A DNA stretch of 36,864 nt from a virus, in UHGV virus genome UHGV-0204638; one strand, given 5' to 3'. Numbering within the stretch: position 1 is the first letter of the stretch; each line of letters starts with the position of its first letter. Of this stretch, positions 571 to 36,611 are shown piece after piece. The notes under the pieces are model-generated. The model was not told where the DNA came from, did not search any database, and saw only the letters and a program-made list of their open reading frames with translations. A program made the translations under genes and the position numbers.

Positions 571-1362
571 ATGATCAACATGAACATTGAACAAATGATT
601 AAATGGATGACTGATCGTGAAGGTAAAGTAACCTACTCAATGACAAGTCGCTTAGGACCCAAAAGCTACGACTGTTCTTCTGCTGTGTTCTTTTCCATGA
701 TCGCTGGTGGATTTCTGCCTAGTGGATCGATGGGTAACACTGAAACATTGTTTGCAATGTCAGGTACTAAACTGAAAAAAATCAGTCGATCAGAAGTGAA
801 ACGTGGAGATATTTTTGTTGCTGGTACTCCTGGTCAATCCAACGGATCAGGGGGACATACAGGTATTTTCCTAAGCAATAAGAGTTTCATTCATTGTTCG
901 TATTATTGGAACGGAATCCATACAGATAGCCATGATTCATACATGAGTACCAGGTTAACGCATCATTTTTATCGAATTGTTGCAGCTGGCGATGTTAAAC
1001 CTACCGAAAACAACCCTCAGATGATTCAATTAGCAATCGATGGACAATTCGGCAATGCTACGGCGAGACGCTTGCAAGAATACTTTGATACTGCTGGTAA
1101 AGATGGCATTATAAGTCATCAATACAAGCAAAAATTTAATCAGAACGTTTATGCTGCTCAATTCGATAGTTCTTTGATTGGATCAAATGTTGTTGTGGCA
1201 TTGCAAAAGTATTTGGGTGTAACAGAAGATGGTCTAATGGGCCAAGCGACTATCAAAGCATTCCAAAAACGATTGGGTACTATGCCAGACGGTATTATTA
1301 GTCCTGTTTCGAGCATGGTTTCTGCTTTACAGAAAGCATTGAACAACAACAAATTGCCTTAA
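571..1362 (+). CDS. Endolysin 1: Amidase_5-type N-acetylmuramoyl-L-alanine amidase domain plus a C-terminal PG_binding_1 peptidoglycan-binding repeat pair.
   Basis: The N-terminal motif KVTYSMTSRLGPKSYDCSSAVFFSM...GGHTGIF matches the Pal/Amidase_5 phage lysin signature (YSM..R.GP.SYDCSS). Two C-terminal repeats (DGQFGNATARRLQEYF and EDGLMGQATIKAFQKRLG) are PG_binding_1-like. The RBS AAAGGA lies 8 nt upstream. Confidence 0.75.
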   Translation: MINMNIEQMIKWMTDREGKVTYSMTSRLGPKSYDCSSAVFFSMIAGGFLPSGSMGNTETLFAMSGTKLKKISRSEVKRGDIFVAGTPGQSNGSGGHTGIFLSNKSFIHCSYYWNGIHTDSHDSYMSTRLTHHFYRIVAAGDVKPTENNPQMIQLAIDGQFGNATARRLQEYFDTAGKDGIISHQYKQKFNQNVYAAQFDSSLIGSNVVVALQKYLGVTEDGLMGQATIKAFQKRLGTMPDGIISPVSSMVSALQKALNNNKLP

Positions 1363-1407
1363 ACCAATTTCGCAAATAATTGCAAACCATTGATAGGAGT
1401 TGTCAGA

Positions 1408-1788
1408 ATGACTAATGAAACCAGAGCACACATTCGCAGTATACTATGGCAGTATAAAAAGATCGAAAAAACGTTTAAAGAATTCTCGGATATTATTGCA
1501 ACAGATAGGAACCCTTATATGGAATACCCATTAGGTGAAGAAAATCCAAGTTGGACAATGAATCAAATTTTATTTTACAAATCATTTTTAAGAGTAGTTA
1601 ATGGTGTCTTAGAAGATTCAACACTTGATGTTAGAGATATATTTTACGTGAAGTATTACAGCGGCCATTCTAAGAAATGTATAGCGGTTGTATCTGCGGA
1701 AACTTTTCTAAGCGAATCTACTATAAAGAGAAGAGATGCGGAATTCATTAATGAAATCGCAAAAAGATTAGGTTGGTTATCGGTTTGA
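1408..1788 (+). CDS. ArpU-family-like transcriptional regulator, a paralogue of the late regulator at 16674-17090.
   Basis: The N-terminal ETRAHIRSILWQYKKIEK parallels NARYVLKNYRRLER of the canonical ArpU at 16674. The C-terminal ESTIKRRDAEFINEIAKRLGW resembles the sigma region-4-like end of ArpU proteins. The RBS TAGGAG is 8 nt before the ATG at 1408; the tracked ORF begins at TTG 1390. Confidence 0.5.
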   Translation: MTNETRAHIRSILWQYKKIEKTFKEFSDIIATDRNPYMEYPLGEENPSWTMNQILFYKSFLRVVNGVLEDSTLDVRDIFYVKYYSGHSKKCIAVVSAETFLSESTIKRRDAEFINEIAKRLGWLSV

Positions 1789-1841
1789 CCTCTTTCAATA
1801 CCTCTCATGGTTTATCCTTTAATTAAGGACGTACGTTCACC

Positions 1842-2765
1842 ATGGACGCATGGTTGAAAAGAAAGGGGAAGATAGAATTGGCTAGTATTGAAAATATGAT
1901 CAAATGGTTTAAGGATCGAGAAGGTAAAGTAACTTATTCAATGAATTCTCGATTAGGACCAAATAGTTATGACTGTAGTTCGGCTGTGTATTTCTCATTG
2001 ATTGCAGGAGGTTTCTTACCTTCTGGAACAGGGATTGGAAATACAGATTCACTATTTGCGTTAGAAGGTAAATTGCTTACTTCGATTACTCGTTCTGAAG
2101 TGAAACGGGGAGATATTTTTGTTGCAGGGTACAAGGGAAACTCTGGCGGTTCGGATGGACACACTGGGGTTTTTGTTGATAGTACAAATATTATTCATTG
2201 TACCTTAGGAGGCGGGAAAAATGGAATCGTAACGACGCCAGCTACAAATTGGATGGGAGATTATAGTGGATTGCCAGTATACTTTTATCGATTAAAGGGC
2301 GCTAATCCTCCATTTAAGTACAAAGTGGATGACGTTGTTTATATCAAAAACAATGCTACTCATTACTTTAATGGTGACTTAATTAGTGATAACGACAAGA
2401 AACTTGCTGGAAAAGTAACGGGTGTTAAGTATGACGACACCGGTCGAAATGGTGAGCATAACTTAGTATTTGTAAAACAAGTTCAAACACCTACAATTAT
2501 TAATCACTGGACCTTAGAACGTGATCTGGAGAAGTGGTCTCCAACAACTACCTATATTTCTAATGGTGAAATTGTTAAATTTAAAGCAGCAGCACAGAGA
2601 ACAGTAGAGGGAACGCTATTGACATCTGCTCAGAAATCAAAAAGTGTAAAAAAAGTCGATACAATCGATATTGCACCAGTGAATGTTGGTACAGGTACTA
2701 GTTATCGTAAGTACAAGCTTGAGGGTATTTCTGGATGGATCTATGAAACTGATGTTCAAAAATGA
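1842..2765 (+). CDS. Endolysin 2: Amidase_5-type catalytic domain plus a C-terminal SH3b-like wall-binding region. The alternative TTG start at 1878 better matches the lysin-1 N-terminus.
   Basis: IENMIKWFKDREGKVTYSMNSRLGPNSYDCSSAVYFSL...DGHTGVF parallels lysin 1 (about 70% aa identity over the catalytic domain). The C-terminal 150 aa are unrelated to the lysin-1 binding domain and end in GWIYETDV, which is SH3_5-like. Confidence 0.7.
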   Translation: MDAWLKRKGKIELASIENMIKWFKDREGKVTYSMNSRLGPNSYDCSSAVYFSLIAGGFLPSGTGIGNTDSLFALEGKLLTSITRSEVKRGDIFVAGYKGNSGGSDGHTGVFVDSTNIIHCTLGGGKNGIVTTPATNWMGDYSGLPVYFYRLKGANPPFKYKVDDVVYIKNNATHYFNGDLISDNDKKLAGKVTGVKYDDTGRNGEHNLVFVKQVQTPTIINHWTLERDLEKWSPTTTYISNGEIVKFKAAAQRTVEGTLLTSAQKSKSVKKVDTIDIAPVNVGTGTSYRKYKLEGISGWIYETDVQK

Positions 2766-2805
2766 CGTTTCAAGTTAATCGTTTAGTATATCCAAATCAC
2801 AAAAA

Positions 2806-2836
2806 TACCACTCCGTAATGGGAGTGGTATTTTTTT
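2806..2836 (+). terminator. Rho-independent terminator after endolysin 2.
   Basis: ACCACTCC-gtaat-GGGAGTGGT hairpin followed by ATTTTTTTAT. Confidence 0.7.
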
Positions 2837-3132
2837 ATAAATAAATAGCCCGATACGGCGGTCTTGTGCATAGATCATATTCGTTTTACTTGCAGTAACC
2901 AACTTTATCCTATAGATTAGTAGGTGCGTGCAATACTCTACGAGGAGTATTAGGCGGTAATGCTTGGGGAAGTGTGCCTAGTACTCTTCGATTTTTTTAT
3001 TTTAGCATTATTTCAATGTAATAGATATTATTGATTAGAAAACCGTCATAAATTGGTTGAGTTTAATTAATAAAAGATGTAATGTAGAATCATACCAACC
3101 AATTCAATTTTTTTCATTGTTATACTTCTTTT

Positions 3133-3168
3133 GGTCCACTCTATCATAACTAGGGTGGACCTTTTATT
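3133..3168 (+). terminator. Hairpin GGTCCAC-N15-GTGGACC plus TTTTATT. A possible terminator or structured RNA element in the long non-coding stretch.
   Basis: A perfect 7-bp inverted repeat with a 15-nt loop, followed by a T tract. Confidence 0.35.
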
Positions 3169-3272
3169 GAAATAAAAACTATGTTCTTGTAGAATGGAAT
3201 CATAGCCTTGACCGGGGCTATTTCATTTTATATCTTTTTTCAGGCCCGCTCTCCTTGAGGGTGGGTTGTTTT

Positions 3273-3349
3273 GTACCTTTAGCTCAGTAGTTGGTTAGAG
3301 TAGACGGCTCATAACCGTCCGGTTGTAAGTTCGAGTCCTACAAGGTAAA
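3273..3349 (+). tRNA. tRNA-like element with anticodon CAU (Met or lysidine-Ile2 type). It is degenerate: a G1.A72 mismatch, a 12-nt D-loop, one A.C pair in the T-stem and no CCA. Probably a pseudo-tRNA or att-associated tRNA remnant.
   Basis: Folded by hand. Acceptor GTACCTT/AAGGTAA pairs at 6 of 7 positions. D-stem is GCTC/GAGT. Anticodon stem GACGG/CCGTC holds the loop CTCATAA. Variable loop is CGGTT. T-arm is GTAAG-TTCGAGT-CCTAC. Confidence 0.45.
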
Positions 3350-3493
3350 TTAGGTAAGTCTATACGCGAATAATTTTCTTTGATTATCTTCTAAAAAAGA
3401 TTTTTCTCATTTGTCAAGAAGTTTAAGTTTACCAACGAAGTAAATACTGATATAATTTTAAATAGAAATCACACTAATATGTTTTTATTTTTG

Positions 3494-3522
3494 TTGACAA
3501 AAATCATGCAAACCTGTATGAT
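3494..3522 (+). promoter_or_regulatory. Sigma-70-type promoter (TTGACA, 17-nt spacer, TATGAT) driving gene K at 3639.
   Basis: Consensus -35 at 3494-3499 and near-consensus -10 at 3517-3522. Confidence 0.55.
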
Positions 3523-3638
3523 ATTTAGTTAAATTAAGTTTTATAAAGTTTTTTAGAAACGAGGAGGTTTAATGCTAAGATAGTAAAATTCAACTTATTT
3601 TCTGTTGTTTTTGATGATCAGTAGAAAGGAAAATAATT

Positions 3639-4076
3639 ATGAATAAAGAAGAATTATTGAATTTTTTAAAAGAGAATGATATACCAGAAGATCTTTTTGT
3701 TTTTCGTGATGAGCCTAGTTATTCGATGAATATTCTTTTAGGTTTAGAAAAAAAGTATAATATCTCTACAAAACATGTTGTTAATGGTGTATTAACAGAA
3801 AAATCATTAAATGAGCTATCTGGATTGACTAAAGATGATCACGAACTGTGGCTAGATACTTACCAGACGTTTAACTTTTTCAAAGGCAATGACGATGATA
3901 TAAATATCGTTCCTGAGAGTACGGATTTAGATTATTCTATTTCGCAACCAGTATACTCTATTTCATCTGAAGATCAAAATATAAAAAAAGAAGTTGGATT
4001 TTTTTATCCCACTTCTTTTTTCTTTTACTCTTTTTTACAAATAATATTATTTATTTTAACACCTTTTTTGGGATGA
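3639..4076 (+). CDS. Hypothetical 145-aa protein (gene K) with a hydrophobic C-terminal tail. It converges on and overlaps the - strand gene J by about 50 bp.
   Basis: ORF preceded by RBS GAAAGGAAAA and the promoter above. The C-terminal FFFYSFLQIILFILTPFLG is hydrophobic. No recognisable catalytic motifs. Confidence 0.45.
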   Translation: MNKEELLNFLKENDIPEDLFVFRDEPSYSMNILLGLEKKYNISTKHVVNGVLTEKSLNELSGLTKDDHELWLDTYQTFNFFKGNDDDINIVPESTDLDYSISQPVYSISSEDQNIKKEVGFFYPTSFFFYSFLQIILFILTPFLG

Positions 4077-4597
4077 AATATAAATTTGCTATTCGAAGCA
4101 CTAATATCAATAGCAGAATTAGCTATCATTGATATTACTCTTTCTCCAGGGTAAGTGTACCCAGCATCTGTGGTCATCAAAACACTTTGAACACATAATG
4201 ACATTCCATTGTCAAATAAATTCAAACTTTTTTCTATTATATTATTCGTGTTTATTCGACTCCCCGGAACTATAATATCTTCAAATGGAAGACTAGAAAG
4301 AATCAATTCTATATTATAAGACGCTAGTTTTTCTCTAACTTCAAATGTTGATGTTTCTGGAGTAAACTCTATTACCTCCCCATCGTCATTCTTTTTATAG
4401 ATTGGTTCGTTTGCAGGGAAAGAGACAGCAATCACTGAAATGTCATCGCCCGAAATTTTTGACTTTGCTCTGATAGCAGCTTGTCCATCTTTTGTGAATA
4501 TCAAAATTTTTGATATTTTGTTCTTTTTTGCGTAATCTAAAACAATCGCTAGGTTCTCATCGAAGTTACTCACTAAATTTGTTGTTAATTTTTTCAT
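4025..4597 (-). CDS. Hypothetical 190-aa protein (gene J) with a pyruvate-kinase C-terminal (PK_C)-like alpha/beta domain signature. It is the last gene of the five-gene - strand cassette.
   Basis: The start at 4597 has RBS AGGAAGG 8 nt upstream; the tracked ORF extends to 4672 with no SD. ILIFTKDGQAAIRAKSKISGDDISVIAVSFP resembles the PK_C motif (vvlTesGrsA..vSkyrP..pIiavT). The PK_C assignment is tentative. Confidence 0.45.
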   Translation of the reverse strand: MKKLTTNLVSNFDENLAIVLDYAKKNKISKILIFTKDGQAAIRAKSKISGDDISVIAVSFPANEPIYKKNDDGEVIEFTPETSTFEVREKLASYNIELILSSLPFEDIIVPGSRINTNNIIEKSLNLFDNGMSLCVQSVLMTTDAGYTYPGERVISMIANSAIDISASNSKFIFHPKKGVKINNIICKKE

Positions 4598-4613
4598 TTG
4601 ACATACCTTCCTG

Positions 4614-5144
4614 TTATTCGTTAAGTTGGGCTTTGTACCATTCGTTATGCTCATTATCATAAGGATGTTCATTGGTATGGTTAATATAATGCGAAAAAAT
4701 ATAGATTGCTTTTAAACAATTCATTCTTTCTATATTAATTCCTATATCTTCTGGATAAATTAAATGTTCCTTACTCCATACATTTCCATCTGCATTAGCG
4801 TGTATAGGTGGAAAGCCTTTTTTCGCTTCGTTAAAATCTAAATCAAACCTTACAAAATCAGATTTATTTTCTTTGTTTTGTAAATGGAAAGAAAAATTTT
4901 TGATGTCAGTTTTATCGGTAAAACTATATGATTTTTCTTTAAGTATCACTTTAAAGTCAGGAATATCATCTAAAACACCATCTATTATCTTGATTTCAAA
5001 CATTTTTAATTTGTCATCTTTCTCATCGAATCTAACATCAAAAGGTACGTTTGAACTTGTACTAACTCTATTTCTAATCAATTCAATTAGCTTTTTAAGA
5101 TAGGTGGCTAAGTTTTCATCTATTATATGTCTATATTCTGTCAT
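4614..5144 (-). CDS. Hypothetical 176-aa protein (gene I), 16 nt upstream of gene J.
   Basis: The RBS TGGAGTAAG precedes the ATG at 5144. The protein is hydrophilic with no recognisable motifs. Confidence 0.5.
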   Translation of the reverse strand: MTEYRHIIDENLATYLKKLIELIRNRVSTSSNVPFDVRFDEKDDKLKMFEIKIIDGVLDDIPDFKVILKEKSYSFTDKTDIKNFSFHLQNKENKSDFVRFDLDFNEAKKGFPPIHANADGNVWSKEHLIYPEDIGINIERMNCLKAIYIFSHYINHTNEHPYDNEHNEWYKAQLNE

Positions 5145-5190
5145 AGCTTACTCCAATTTTTACTAATATAATAATTAAAGCAAATAAACT

Positions 5191-5517
5191 TTACAAATAC
5201 AAGTTTTTAATGATTGAAAAACAAAAAATATGAGGCATTGTAAAAAAACTTAGAATGCTAAGGTCTTTATTCATTGCTTCAAATTCAATCATAATCTTCG
5301 TCTTTCCGATCACCGAATATTTCTTCACAACAAATTGTTTCCTACTATTATACTCACCAGCAACCACAATTTGCATTCTTTCATCTACATCTGCCAAGAA
5401 GTTCAAACTATGCGCTGCAATCAAGCAATTCTCATTATCCAAAGAGAACCGCACCAAAGGGGTCTTGCTCATCTTCAATACACGTATCTTCGATACAAAG
5501 CCTTTCATCGATTTCAT
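5191..5517 (-). CDS. Hypothetical protein of about 108 aa (gene H). Its start overlaps the 3' end of gene G in another frame.
   Basis: A strong GGAGG RBS sits 8 nt before the ATG at 5517 (MKSMKGFVSKIRV...). The tracked ORF extends to 5544. The overlap with G may be genuine or one of the two calls may be wrong. Confidence 0.4.
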   Translation of the reverse strand: MKSMKGFVSKIRVLKMSKTPLVRFSLDNENCLIAAHSLNFLADVDERMQIVVAGEYNSRKQFVVKKYSVIGKTKIMIEFEAMNKDLSILSFFTMPHIFCFSIIKNLYL

Positions 5518-5704
5518 AACAATCGCCTCCGTAAGCTTGTACATAATAGCAACAATCCGTTTTACCTAAAGTGACAGCAACATAAAACTCGACACATTTT
5601 GAGCCGAATAATGCTTCCTGTGATTCAGAAATAGAGTCGGGAAATGCGTTTATAAACTCAGGAAGAGATAAGTAGCCTTGATCGTATTGGCTGATTATGT
5701 TCAT
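5435..5704 (-). CDS. Hypothetical 89-aa protein (gene G) with a possible SUKH/SMI1-KNR4-like immunity-protein pattern. Its start overlaps the stop of gene F (TAATG).
   Basis: The sequence LSLPEFINAF...ALFG...VAVTLGKTDCCYYVQAYGGDCYEID resembles the LPxxY...G..y.ld motif order of SUKH domains. Resemblance is weak. Confidence 0.35.
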   Translation of the reverse strand: MNIISQYDQGYLSLPEFINAFPDSISESQEALFGSKCVEFYVAVTLGKTDCCYYVQAYGGDCYEIDERLCIEDTCIEDEQDPFGAVLFG

Positions 5705-6057
5705 TACACATCAAACCACTTTTTCTCAGAAAAGAAATCTATATTTCGAATTTCACCATATTCTATGAGGGTGGACCCGATGTAGATTCCCAGATCATTG
5801 TGACCAGACAGAAAACCGGTTATATCGGGCATGAATTTTCCCAACTGAGTATAATTTAGTTGCACGGCTAACTTTTTGTGTTTCATAAGCGCTTCTTGAA
5901 GAAACTTTCCTATTTCTTCTTCATCCATTTCTGGTTTAGGAGAGCATACATAAGCTAACTCTTTGTCGACTCTATCAATATCAGTTGTATGTTCAGACAA
6001 GAAGAATCCTATCCACTTTAATTTTTTACGATCCTCGTAAGGTTTAATCATTCCCAT
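5704..6057 (-). CDS. Hypothetical 117-aa protein (gene F), the first gene of the - strand cassette.
   Basis: The RBS GAGGAG is 8 nt before the ATG at 6057; the tracked ORF begins three codons earlier at a GTG. An AT-rich promoter-like region (TATAAT) and a GAAC-N4-GTTC palindrome lie upstream. Confidence 0.45.
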   Translation of the reverse strand: MGMIKPYEDRKKLKWIGFFLSEHTTDIDRVDKELAYVCSPKPEMDEEEIGKFLQEALMKHKKLAVQLNYTQLGKFMPDITGFLSGHNDLGIYIGSTLIEYGEIRNIDFFSEKKWFDV

Positions 6058-6159
6058 AATTATCACTCCTCACGGAAAAGTATACGAACGTTTGTTCTCT
6101 TTGTAAAGCGAACAGAATTATAAATTTAAAATTAGAATTGATAGAAACATCTAAAATTT

Positions 6160-6184
6160 CTGGTGATAGTTTTGGTGATAGTGA
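6160..6184. repeat. 25-bp perfect direct repeat, copy 1 (CTGGTGATAGTTTTGGTGATAGTGA). It is itself a tandem of the 10-mer TGGTGATAGT.
   Basis: Exact match to 6424-6448. Candidate integrase arm-type binding sites flanking the att core. Confidence 0.6.
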
Positions 6185-6423
6185 ATCTAAATATAAGAAA
6201 AGTTAGAAACAAAAAACACTAATAAAAGCACTGATATTAAAGGGTTTTGGTAAATGGGAAACAATAGGAAATGGGGAAGAGGTACAAGAAAAACATGTTC
6301 GCCTTACTTGGCAAACCAGGTTTCGAAGATCTTGCAAAAGAATTGAACGAACGTCTATAAACCAATACTTTTAGCACTCATGTAAATTAGTGGTGAACGA
6401 AACATGTTCGCTTTAGTTTATAA

Positions 6424-6448
6424 CTGGTGATAGTTTTGGTGATAGTGA
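6424..6448. repeat. 25-bp perfect direct repeat, copy 2, 15 bp from the integrase stop codon.
   Basis: Exact match to 6160-6184, 264 bp away. Confidence 0.6.
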
Positions 6449-6462
6449 CAAATGAAAAGCAC

Positions 6463-7686
6463 TCATTGCGAGTGCTTTTTTCTTTCGTTTTCGATGTAAT
6501 TTTCGAACTGCTCCATAGACCTCTTTTTGACTTCTGGTGAAATGTGGGCGTAGATTTGAGTTGTTGAAATATCTTTGTGCCCAAGAAAGTCTTTGATATC
6601 TTCTAAGGATAGACCAGCTTGTCGAGACCTGACTGCAAATGTATGCCTGCCATCGTGAACTCTAATTTTCGGCAAATCAGCTTTTTCAGCAATCCGATTA
6701 AATGCACCATTCACTGATCGATCGCGAACTATTTTACCTTTGTATCTCTTACTGGTTTGCAAGAAGATAAATTGTTCGCCATCTTCAGTAGAAGGGAAGG
6801 TACCAAAAGTACTCAAGATATGATTTCTAAAAGCAAGGAGCGCCTGTTTGCTTCTTTTAGTCATAGGCATACTTCTGATTCCAGCAGGTGTTTTTGGGTC
6901 GTCAGTTATAATAGCGTTAGTATTCAGACCTTTTTCGACTGATCCTAACCGTTCTCTTTCAATACTGATCATATTTCCTCCGAAATCAATATCCTGCCAC
7001 TGTAAACCCATCACTTCTGATTTCCTCAATCCTTGATCAAAGATTAGTAGGAAGAAGGGGTACCACAAAACCTCGGATTCTTTTTTCGCAAAATCTAAAA
7101 ATCTATCAGCTTGCTGCAAATCATAATATCTGATCGATTCTTTTTTCTCAATCAATCTGGGAAATTCAACGAATTGAGTTGGGTTATCTTTTATATATCC
7201 TAATTGAATTGCTTTTTTGAAAGCATTGCTCAGCGTCGCATTTACGCTCTTGGCAGTAGTGATGGACAAACCTTGTCCGCTTCTTCCTAAACCTGCCTTT
7301 GTAAGTAGTAGATTAATGAATTTTTGATGATCAGCTCGAGTATATTTGTTCAAAGAATATTTTCCAATATAGGGAATGATATACATCCTTATGTTGGCTC
7401 TGTGAACTACTCTTGTACCTTCTTTGACTGCTTGCTTATAATTGGTTACCCAATCTTCAAGAAATTCTTCTATAGTTAAGTTCTGTGGATTTTCTTTGAA
7501 ATATTCTTCAGATGCTATTTTTCCTTCAATTATTTTGGCGTAACTGTTTGCTTCATCAAATGACTTGAATCCTTTTTTGTGTATCTTGTTTTGTTTTCCT
7601 GTTCCGGGATTGATTCCATTAGAAATGAAAACTTCATATCTATATTGTTTTGCCTTCTTCAAATAGTATTTCTTTATAGAAGCCAT
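6463..7686 (-). CDS. int: Tyrosine-type site-specific integrase (phage integrase family).
   Basis: The C-terminal R...HDGRHTFAVRS...LGH...TQIYAH matches the R-H-R-Y catalytic signature. The N-terminal YRYEVF is typical of the arm-binding domain. The start at 7686 has RBS AAGGAG; the tracked ORF extends to 7800 with no SD. Confidence 0.85.
   Translation of the reverse strand: MASIKKYYLKKAKQYRYEVFISNGINPGTGKQNKIHKKGFKSFDEANSYAKIIEGKIASEEYFKENPQNLTIEEFLEDWVTNYKQAVKEGTRVVHRANIRMYIIPYIGKYSLNKYTRADHQKFINLLLTKAGLGRSGQGLSITTAKSVNATLSNAFKKAIQLGYIKDNPTQFVEFPRLIEKKESIRYYDLQQADRFLDFAKKESEVLWYPFFLLIFDQGLRKSEVMGLQWQDIDFGGNMISIERERLGSVEKGLNTNAIITDDPKTPAGIRSMPMTKRSKQALLAFRNHILSTFGTFPSTEDGEQFIFLQTSKRYKGKIVRDRSVNGAFNRIAEKADLPKIRVHDGRHTFAVRSRQAGLSLEDIKDFLGHKDISTTQIYAHISPEVKKRSMEQFENYIENERKKHSQ
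6466..6491. terminator. Bidirectional hairpin terminator overlapping the last integrase codons.
   Basis: GCACTC-attgc-GAGTGC with TTTTTT on the + strand and a T-rich run on the - strand. Confidence 0.5.
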
Positions 7687-17090: not shown

Positions 17091-17319
17091 AAAATGGCGG
17101 TTTTTTGGCGGTATGATGGCGGTTTAGTGCCAATAATCCATAGTAAGATAGTATTATCAATTATTGTAAATAACAGGGCGCACTCCTTTAACATACGTTG
17201 GCAGACATCCTTTCTGAAAATTATTCCCAGCGCCCTGTATTTAATTAAGACGGCGACAAAAAATCTATCATGAATGGAGTTGAACACACTCCTTATCTTC
17301 ATTCGCTAGCCGTCTTTTT

Positions 17320-17393
17320 CAGGAATTGGCTCAGTTTGGTCGAGCATCAGATTTTTAATCTGAAAGTCGTGGGTTCAAGTCCTACATTCCTGA
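17320..17393 (+). tRNA. tRNA-Lys (anticodon UUU), phage-encoded.
   Basis: Hand-folded. Perfect 7-bp acceptor stem CAGGAAT/ATTCCTG. D-arm is GCTC-AGTTTGGTC-GAGC. Anticodon stem TCAGA/TCTGA holds the loop TTTTTAA with U33 and A37. T-arm is GTGGG-TTCAAGT-CCTAC. Discriminator is A; no encoded CCA. Confidence 0.8.
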
Positions 17394-17445
17394 TTGGGAG
17401 TTGTCGATTGGATTACTCACACAATCTTTGATACTTCCTACTTAA

Positions 17446-35800: not shown

Positions 35801-36611
35801 TGTCGCTCAACAGGGGAACGATGCGATCGTTATCTCTGATACAGCACCTGCCAATCCAACAAAAGGAACGTTATGGCAAGATAGCAGCGTTGTTCCTCAG
35901 ATCATTAAAGTATTTGACGGCACTGCTTGGAGTATGTGGGGGATGCCTATTGATAACTTACTTGCTACCAACATTCTTTCTGAGAATGGGGTGTTCAAAA
36001 GGTTAGAAGGAGCAGAGATTGTAAATACATTTTCCTATACAGATTCTGGTGTAACTTATACTGGAACTACTACTATGAAAGATGGGAATGTGACTATCTC
36101 ACGAACAGGTTCAGACGGATCAACTTGGACAACCACAATGGATCGTGTACAAGGATTCGTTGATACCTACAAATCTGGTCCTTCCGCACCTTCAAGAGTT
36201 ACTCAATTAGGGCAAGGGAAATTGTATATGGTGGAGTCTGGTGTGGGTGGCTACCTGCCTGCAGCAGCTTTAAACCCTGCAAGTTGGACAAATTTATCTT
36301 ATGCATCAGGATTTACAACAGCAGAAAATAACCCCTGTCAGTATCGGAAAGTTCAATTAGTTGACGGATCTTGGGAGTTGCAACTAAGAGGTCAGATCAA
36401 GCCGACTTCTGGCGATTTCAGTACAACAGCCTCACCAACAGGAGGTATATTACCAGCTGGATTTAGACCAACAAGGAATGAACTGGTACCCGCTGCGGAT
36501 AGCACCAAAAGAGGTGCTCGGGTAGTTGTATTGGCAACTGGGGAAATCCAAATTAACACACCAAATGGAGGAAACTATGTTTCCTTTGGTGGGATAAGGA
36601 TTGCATTGTAG
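32862..36611 (+). CDS. Tail-associated lysin/receptor-binding tail protein (Tal; Prophage_tail endopeptidase N-terminus plus collagen-like Gly-X-Y stretches).
   Basis: 1249 aa after Dit. The N-terminal MAEIPIIAVKSQYDQVLAFFNN is typical of prophage endopeptidase tail proteins. Collagen-like stretches GPQGGQGPKGDS and GGKGDPGDPGKG are present. Confidence 0.7.
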   Translation: MMAEIPIIAVKSQYDQVLAFFNNAAPKAMHFKNDRLHEYVKGNASQFTFKTAAKHPDSQYLVEGNKLAFRWKNKDYDLNIVKVVRDEKVVEITAYSTMFELLYETRREYTGNSMTFEQYLNVFDPEHVLVVGVNEVSSAKISNKWEGTQTILARLFSLATVFSAELEFVTELNDDYTLKQVTLNVYKEYSDGLNQGIGQNRSDVILKYGKGITGVTKTSDISDGIYTAILAYGKDGLSINDIERNWYNEDGNLEYFTRKGQPRIYAPLARDNFPSNLFASENERYIGYEADDTEYTSQETLLGYMLSELKKLSAPEVTYEIDGKFDVDVGDTIIVEDDGYNPTLYLSVRVAETEKSLSNPSIRKAVISNVKELSSEIDASLLAQVQALIEANKTYNFEILTSSGIVFKNGFGSTTLTARVRDGIKDVTDTFSLKWYKDGTLFSNTKTVTINAADIEEKAVFRFEVADDSGNVRGGAEVTVTNIDDGQPGEPGETYYPHRGYLMADGTFIKVYPNENELPNSKSPVFKGYLGATVITEIVSVEEWGATDAVKHTVSGGTNATISGVLSSGKLVDANKQYVHSIFVKNTGSSYVRLNNNLGQAIDVYPGEVKQVIFNPRASAAGTSSKQFVLYRLNASVTQEFIVWHAKIEKSEFSSTLWVPTPDEDYENAYPKYEGFYSDTNQFGSDNPDDYKPWTPFMGPQGGQGPKGDSAPLISLSGATQAITVDKDGKITPASSFAVNGTAVNTAISNWTYSLNGGNFGSAVPTGVTRSGNIVTIDPTKAVFDTLTIKAADATVSDVFTVSRIKDGGEGTPGADAYTVFLTNESYTFAGSTTAALAGSTTTEVIVYKGINKITPTSITVGTKPTGLSSSVSGSIITLTATTALVSKSGTVPITITADGKTFTKQFAYALSLQGGKGDPGDPGKGVSAEEISYAISQDGTTPPTSGWSGTRPTPKAGWYMWTRTRFKYTDNTYSAYFYLVAQQGNDAIVISDTAPANPTKGTLWQDSSVVPQIIKVFDGTAWSMWGMPIDNLLATNILSENGVFKRLEGAEIVNTFSYTDSGVTYTGTTTMKDGNVTISRTGSDGSTWTTTMDRVQGFVDTYKSGPSAPSRVTQLGQGKLYMVESGVGGYLPAAALNPASWTNLSYASGFTTAENNPCQYRKVQLVDGSWELQLRGQIKPTSGDFSTTASPTGGILPAGFRPTRNELVPAADSTKRGARVVVLATGEIQINTPNGGNYVSFGGIRIAL

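Follow-up and report, generated by a model that had tools for sequence, protein, structure and literature searches.

UHGV-0204638 is a virus genome whose 36,864 nucleotides were analysed as one stretch (the window), and between its lysis genes and its integrase it carries six small genes, K, J, I, H, G and F (3639-6057). A first-pass annotation had treated F to J as one five-gene cassette with K as a convergent neighbour. However, the region is a composite of two modules with different histories. I, J and K (5144-3639) are a self-contained, horizontally mobile, AT-rich three-gene cassette inserted at a cargo hotspot between the lysin genes and attP. F, G and H (6057-5191), judged by their sequence relationships, are small phage-backbone genes near attP and the integrase, common to related Enterococcus temperate phages. 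What the I-J-K triad does has to be read from its genomic context. On that basis the chances are about even that it is an undescribed conflict system (phage defence, abortive infection or toxin-antitoxin-like), carried as prophage cargo that benefits the lysogen.

The boundary between the two modules is marked by two overlapping homologies. BLASTN homology to Enterococcus gallinarum phage EG-TP1 (82% identity) spans 5255-7686, which takes in F, G, H and the integrase. In EG-TP1 the place of I-J-K is taken by three unrelated genes, gp33-35. A second BLASTN homology, at 98% identity, is to the Logan contig L002; it spans 3317-5508 and takes in K, J, I, H and a stub of G. In that contig the block adjoins a different set of tail genes and its orientation relative to them is the opposite one. 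The EG-TP1 homology begins at 5255 and the L002 homology runs to 5508, and the junction is therefore placed at the 3' end of H. Past 5255 the last ~21 codons of H differ from, or have no counterpart in, EG-TP1 gp32.

Composition also separates the modules. The whole island had been described as richer in AT than the flanking phage genes, and this is true of one part of it. K-J-I (3639-5190) has a G+C content (GC) of 29.1%, and no window of equal size outside 2700-6100 is as low (mean 38.2%, sd 2.2, minimum 33.2%). However, F-G-H has 35.9% GC, at the 19th percentile, which is unremarkable.

What if all of these genes nevertheless belong to one co-evolved system of five genes (F, G, H, I and J), or of six with K, as first proposed? 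The five are co-directional and tightly packed with coupling signals, and L002 does retain H together with I-J-K. However, EG-TP1 has F-G-H but no I-J-K, and Latilactobacillus phage P3 has H and F but no I-J-K. Conversely, I-J-K occurs without F-G-H in every other locus. With the homology break at 5255, at the end of H, and the difference in composition added to this, a single system is highly improbable.

The site itself is a variable one. The first-pass annotation had placed the genes between the lysis genes and the integrase, which is correct, and had regarded the interval between lysin and attP/integrase as a moron hotspot. Both EG-TP1 and phage P3 hold other cargo there. In P3 (Latilactobacillus phage TMW 1.1365 P3) a 408-aa protein with a putAbiC (abortive infection) domain (2362-3588 of that locus, E=1.9e-6) is encoded beside H-like and F-like genes. 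This shows that the lysin/integrase slot accepts defence cargo in related phages.

All six open reading frames (ORFs) are present where they had been reported. Within the triad, I (5144-4614, minus strand, 176 aa) and J (4597-4025, minus strand, 190 aa) are separated by the 16-nt spacer described earlier (4598-4613). The spacer contains the ribosome-binding site (RBS) AGGAAGG, which follows the I stop and precedes the J ATG at 4597, and J homologues begin at the same place. K (3639-4076, plus strand) encodes an acidic protein of 145 aa with an isoelectric point (pI) of 4.3 and is preceded by the RBS GAAAGGAAA. It is convergent on J, as had been noted, and the 3' ends of the two genes overlap by 52 nt (4025-4076). 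There is no terminator-like site between K and J in the window. The best promoter-like site of the region, TTGACA-17-TATGAT, lies upstream of K (3494-3522, plus strand) and matches the consensus at 11 of 12 positions. Another, TTGTAA-17-TATTAT, lies upstream of I (5168-5196, minus strand, 9 of 12 positions); it is a consensus match only, and promoter-like sites in the region are no more numerous than in shuffled sequence.

The triad recurs elsewhere as a unit. A metagenome scan for triad loci used the J alignment, and the triad is now known from at least 15 non-redundant loci. An I homologue lies directly upstream of J in every retrieved locus, and the two are 0-16 nt apart in loci with called boundaries. 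A K homologue is convergent on J wherever the contig extends past J. The 3' overlap of J and K is 8-87 nt in loci with called genes. The exception is a set of metagenome loci (L016-L020) in which K homology abuts the J stop or lies just past it. This arrangement is kept at considerable protein divergence. The lowest identities across loci are 34-47% for I, 38-63% for J and 27-44% for K; the K range is that of full-length members, and a truncated copy in a satellite phage is 20% identical. The first-pass annotation had named conserved I-J synteny across unrelated phages or islands as one of two observations that would support it. That synteny is found, and it extends to K.

The hosts and neighbourhoods of these loci are diverse. 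Several copies lie in a Staphylococcus equorum-like chromosome (L003-6), with two HicAB pairs and a MazE-like gene nearby in L003-5. Others occur in Trichococcus (L007/8, from a T. flocculiformis metagenome-assembled genome), on a contig with a transposase and Phd/YafQ (L009), and at the end of the Streptococcus uberis satellite phage Javan634 (L010). In Sporosarcina limicola (L013) the triad is directly beside the JetA2 and JetB2 genes of a Wadjet type II system (2339-4980 of that locus, E=2e-205 and 2e-147). In Paenibacillus glacialis (L014) it directly follows a McrBC-like pair, AAA_5/PDC-M26A and DUF2357 (1211-5069 of that locus). A Neobacillus drentensis integrative element (L015) carries it with an integrase, cI/cro and a DUF927 protein, and a metagenomic element (L016) with a Rep protein and a serine recombinase; L016 to L021 are all metagenome loci. 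The GC of the triad is 27-32% in all of these hosts, with flanks of 29-47%. Conserved synteny of the triad combined with a constantly low GC is the typical footprint of a mobile conflict module.

Those neighbourhoods also raise a narrower alternative. The triad might be an addiction or stabilisation (toxin-antitoxin, TA) module that lets mobile elements persist and has no direct anti-phage role, with I or I-J as the toxin and the acidic K as the antidote. It adjoins HicAB, MazE and Phd/YafQ loci, it resides on a prophage, a satellite and integrative elements, and K is small and acidic, as many antitoxins are. However, the triad also lies beside Wadjet and McrBC-like systems, and its proteins resemble no toxin or antitoxin family. 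When the homologues were compared with type II TA systems, no toxin or antitoxin Pfam family was consistent across members and K was convergent on I-J; such a three-gene layout differs from that of classical type II TA operons. A pure addiction role is thus unlikely. It also overlaps the conflict-system reading that we favour, since TA and defence roles are not mutually exclusive.

A second question is how common the triad is. It is rare. A word-indexed search of 5.8 billion sequences found five homologous clusters for J and one for I, and a profile search found six clusters for I. Exhaustive HMMER searching of 1.84 billion sequences gave 41 representative clusters of the I family at E<=1e-3. 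The triad might instead be counter-defence cargo, helping a phage or satellite to overcome host immunity. That role would fit its location in an accessory slot of a prophage and at one end of a satellite. It would also fit the presence of acidic small proteins, of which the neighbouring G is another. However, many copies reside in bacterial chromosomes beside defence or TA systems rather than in phages. Moreover, no copy turned up among 2.9 million IMG/VR contigs, and the phage collection has it in a single record. A counter-defence function is very unlikely on these grounds.

The proteins themselves give fewer clues. All six were searched against Pfam, PHROGs, PADLOC-DB v2.0.0 and NCBIfam, and none reached a curated family threshold except F and H, which match PHROGs of unknown function. 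This agrees with the earlier view that none of the six has a nameable function. The same annotation had proposed a PADLOC scan, which reveals no known defence system: K, J, H, G and F have no match at E<=1 and I has only a match to REase_II. The Paenibacillus homologues of I, J and K have no PADLOC match either. Pfam scans were extended to each sequence in the I, J and K alignments, and J alone showed a consistent signal, namely PK_C. Limited full-text searches of the literature on COG1751/AF0103/MTH1675, on PK_C in anti-phage contexts and on Enterococcus prophage defence turned up no description of the cassette.

J is the protein with the clearest relatives. A profile built from nine J sequences matches the Protein Data Bank (PDB) entries 1vp8 (AF0103; E=7e-5, residues 9-156, nearly all of J) and 1t57 (MTH1675; E=7.6e-5), and the alignment with MTH1675 is the conserved C-terminal segment. 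Pfam PK_C (PF02887) matches three of the nine J homologues, at best with E=0.0021 and below the gathering score, and does not match J of the window. The PK_C-like signature noticed earlier in J therefore holds weakly but consistently. Sequence comparison thus suggests that J is remotely related to PK_C-like alpha/beta domains of the AF0103/MTH1675 type. Domains with the PK_C fold bind ligands and are regulatory, and the AF0103 crystals contained flavin mononucleotide (FMN; PMC6741144).

I has no such relatives. Its predicted model is confident (predicted local distance difference test, pLDDT, 84; predicted template modelling score, pTM, 0.79), with a helix at the N terminus, a long antiparallel sheet and helices in the C-terminal part. 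No structural neighbour of this model was found among the solved structures searched, and PDB sequence/profile searches gave no match. Across 35 family members D101, H115, H127 and Y170 are invariant, and E70, R99 and Y153 are nearly so. The invariant Asp/His/His/Tyr set suggests a catalytic or metal site. The conserved pattern could not be placed in any known motif class. PD-(D/E)xK, HNH and HEPN were considered and set aside, because neither the spacing nor the family-wide conservation fits them by eye. The PADLOC match to REase_II (E=0.007) covers the non-conserved N-terminal half of I and was treated as chance.

If J is a flavin-binding PK_C-like protein and I a metal-dependent alpha+beta protein, then perhaps the two are simply a redox or metabolic enzyme pair that serves lysogenic conversion, and there is no conflict system at all. 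Such a pair would have to account for an extremely sparse and patchy distribution, a foreign composition and a repeated association with mobile elements and with defence or TA loci. In addition, there are no conserved linked transporter, regulator or pathway genes around the triad. We consider a metabolic pair to be quite improbable.

K is the most elusive of the three. It consists of a conserved helical N-terminal part of ~90 residues and a hydrophobic, poorly conserved C-terminal tail. The tail is the antisense reading of the 3' end of J, its length varies among homologues, and it is probably itself under no selection. Searches of Pfam, NCBIfam, PHROGs, PADLOC and the PDB found no family match for K, and a single-sequence structural model was useless (pLDDT 43). 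An Xre-type helix-turn-helix (HTH) was tried as an identity for K and rejected: when the K alignment was compared by hhalign with an alignment of four local Xre-type HTH domains, the probability was 0.14%, and there was no HTH match in Pfam.

How might such a system work? I and J would be made from one tightly coupled message and would act as a complex. J could be the ligand-sensing or regulatory subunit. This role is suggested because its nearest solved relative binds FMN and because the PK_C fold is the allosteric sensor of a phospho-metabolite in pyruvate kinase. I would then be the catalytic effector, with the invariant Asp/His/His/Tyr cluster placed on a fold without solved relatives. K would antagonise or tune I-J, either as an acidic binding protein or through convergent-transcription collision or antisense interference. 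The balance between I-J and K would be upset by infection or when the element is lost, and the effector would thereby be released. In its boldest form this makes I-J-K a new three-component anti-phage system of the abortive-infection type. I would have an unseen fold with a His/His/Asp active site, J would be a PK_C-like sensor of a flavin, nucleotide or phospho-metabolite signal of infection, and K would be an antagonist controlled via the obligate convergent overlap. That full proposal is tentative and, as it stands, doubtful. The odds of the mechanistic details are much lower than the odds that the triad belongs to the conflict-system class.

Several observations do not sit well with a conflict system. 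I, J and K have no homology to any characterised defence, toxin or antitoxin protein at the thresholds of PADLOC, Pfam, NCBIfam and PHROGs, and J resembles PK_C-like proteins at scores that fall short of curated thresholds. Plain chromosome surrounds some copies, as in L008, where the triad lies between UvdE and DUF386, and in L017, where it is beside pur genes. The sample of neighbourhoods is small, at about a dozen contexts of which two or three are plain chromosome, and carries no enrichment statistic. L002 is not an independent context, as it keeps H and a fragment of G. The absence of the triad from plasmids as well as from the IMG/VR viral contigs means that it is not common phage cargo. 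Finally, the antisense tail of K is variable, and the overlap may be a by-product of missing stop codons and not a regulatory device.

If I-J-K does protect against phage, it would be a defence system built from families without a curated model. It would also supply the first biological context for PK_C-like stand-alone proteins, which have been uncharacterised since their structural-genomics structures. The convergent layout, overlapping or abutting and conserved at 27-47% protein identity, would be a compact case for the study of transcriptional collision. The distribution further shows an exchange of cargo between the lysin/attP slot in temperate phages of Enterococcus and defence islands of the staphylococcal, streptococcal-satellite and bacillus-group kinds. 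If there were no phage phenotype, the triad would be a clean example of a mobile orphan module, of modest interest.

The backbone genes F, G and H can be dealt with more briefly. F (6057-5704, minus strand, 117 aa) most likely starts at 6057, with GGAG 8 nt upstream, and has a promoter-like site TTTACA-17-TATACT before it (6079-6107, minus strand, 10 of 12 positions). The TAATG coupling reported for F and G is there: the F stop and the G start share it at 5706-5702. G (5704-5435, minus strand) has 89 aa. H (5517-5191, minus strand) encodes a small basic protein. The 83-nt out-of-frame overlap of G and H that had been described is present if H starts at 5517, which has GGAGG 8 nt upstream. However, H might also start at 5508 or 5472, and the H annotated in EG-TP1 is shorter and overlaps by 17 nt. 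PDB sequence/profile searches gave no matches for F, G or H.

F matches phrog_16307 (E=1.6e-10) and H matches phrog_15227 (E=3.6e-7). F homologues occur in Enterococcus, Listeria and Latilactobacillus phages, and F lies between lysin and integrase in several temperate phages of Bacillota; in phage P3 F-like and H-like genes are adjacent in this position. The N-terminal half of F is weakly YolD-like (Pfam PF08863; E=0.054, 14.0 bits), as is the EG-TP1 homologue (E=0.002, 18.6 bits). Both scores are below the gathering score of 27.5 bits and cover the N-terminal half of the profile only. F and its homologue match the first 50 profile positions and are of similar size to YolD-like proteins (~110-120 aa); unlike those, F has no adjacent gene for a Y-family polymerase. 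G is 64% identical to EG-TP1 gp31 and very acidic (pI 4.05, net charge about -14, six Cys). In size and charge it resembles small anti-restriction or DNA-mimic proteins, but homology gives no support for this. An earlier SUKH-like reading of G is not borne out. Its sole match was to CdiI_4 (E=0.063, 14.2 bits, against a cut-off of 25.9), and no PDB sequence match was below E=0.79.

By its gene content the window reads as one temperate siphophage, and its gene order appears to fit a circularly permuted genome. The host reads as a low-GC member of the Bacillota, probably Enterococcus. The closest database entries are a "Bacteriophage sp." scaffold from the human gut (94% identity) and EG-TP1 (82%). 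The window opens with holin-like genes (1-538), an Amidase_5 endolysin (lysin 1, 571-1362), a RinA/ArpU-like regulator gene (1390-1788) and a second Amidase_5 lysin (lysin 2, 1842-2765) with a different C-terminal domain. The N-terminal domains of the two lysins share 74-86% DNA identity in patches. EG-TP1 lacks the block 1390-2765, that is, the RinA/ArpU-like gene and the second lysin, which directly follow lysin 1 in the window. This block looks like the captured end of another phage.

A stretch of ~870 bp without any ORF of >=40 aa comes next (2766-3638). A strong terminator follows lysin 2 (about 2802-2836). Three consecutive terminator-like hairpins on the plus strand (3133-3161, 3202-3221 and 3243-3267) lie just upstream of a tRNA-like element with the anticodon CAU (3273-3349, plus strand). 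The element scores 47.9 bits with the Rfam tRNA model (gathering score 29) and is 88.5% identical to an annotated tRNA-Met of Lactobacillus phage 3-SAC12. ARAGORN makes no call for it. Bases are mismatched at pair 1:72 and within the T stem, and CCA is not encoded. The L002 contig terminates within this element, which lies at the outer edge of the block in common, as though the sequence were repeated in that genome. The element may be a phage tRNA, or else a decayed copy or the remnant of an old att site. Elsewhere the window encodes a genuine tRNA-Lys (UUU), at 17319-17394 (plus strand), between the early and late modules.

On the other side of the six genes, F and the integrase are separated by a spacer of ~400 bp with repeats. 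A perfect 25-nt direct repeat, CTGGTGATAGTTTTGGTGATAGTGA, occurs at 6160-6184 and 6424-6448 (264 nt apart), between F and the integrase stop, and one copy is 100% identical at the same place in EG-TP1. A 19-nt imperfect repeat is also found there (6291-6309 and 6400-6418). These repeats are probably the arm-type sites of attP that the integrase uses. Beyond the tyrosine integrase gene (7800-6463, minus strand) come modules for lysogeny, replication and structure, which extend to a tail protein of 1249 aa that ends at 36611. The first ORF of the window opens with an ATG at its very first base, and 253 nt separate a tail gene from the other end. These limits suggest that the record is that of a circularly permuted phage, rotated so as to begin at the start of a gene.

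This arrangement matters for one last alternative, in which the six genes are ordinary host chromosome caught between two tandem prophages. A window that begins with lysis genes and ends with tail genes is what two tandem prophages could produce, and a tRNA-like element is at hand. However, F, G, H and the integrase are contiguous in EG-TP1, an induced and sequenced phage, exactly as in the window, and the order of the window fits one circularly permuted temperate phage genome. The triad, for its part, is a mobile cassette and not a conserved host locus. A chromosomal origin of the region is barely credible.

How does the triad compare with what is already known? Its closest counterpart in position is prophage moron cargo for defence or superinfection exclusion, such as the putAbiC gene of phage P3. 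Like such cargo, I-J-K occupies the same slot, is oriented against the late genes, comes with promoter-like sites of its own, has a GC below that of the phage and gives way to other cargo in related phages. However, it has no sequence or fold relationship to AbiC, to other abortive-infection (Abi) proteins or to superinfection-exclusion (Sie) proteins, and where such cargo is a single gene, it has three, one of them a convergent and overlapping partner. Tripartite and type II TA systems such as HicAB and Phd/YafQ resemble it in another way, with their small genes, acidic partner, tight coupling, residence on mobile elements and location in TA or defence islands. They differ in that no known toxin or antitoxin family is homologous to I, J or K, that K converges on its partners instead of being co-transcribed, and that K has no detectable HTH. 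Finally, J shares the C-terminal 'QSV..atD.G..P' segment and a size of ~190-200 aa with both AF0103 and MTH1675. However, it has invariant motifs of its own (FPANE, LPFEDIxxPG and FHPxxG), and it is bacterial, on mobile elements and always paired with I and K, whereas the solved relatives are archaeal orphans of a housekeeping type. Mobile conflict cargo in a prophage hotspot is well known, whereas the I, J and K families and their convergent three-gene layout are not.

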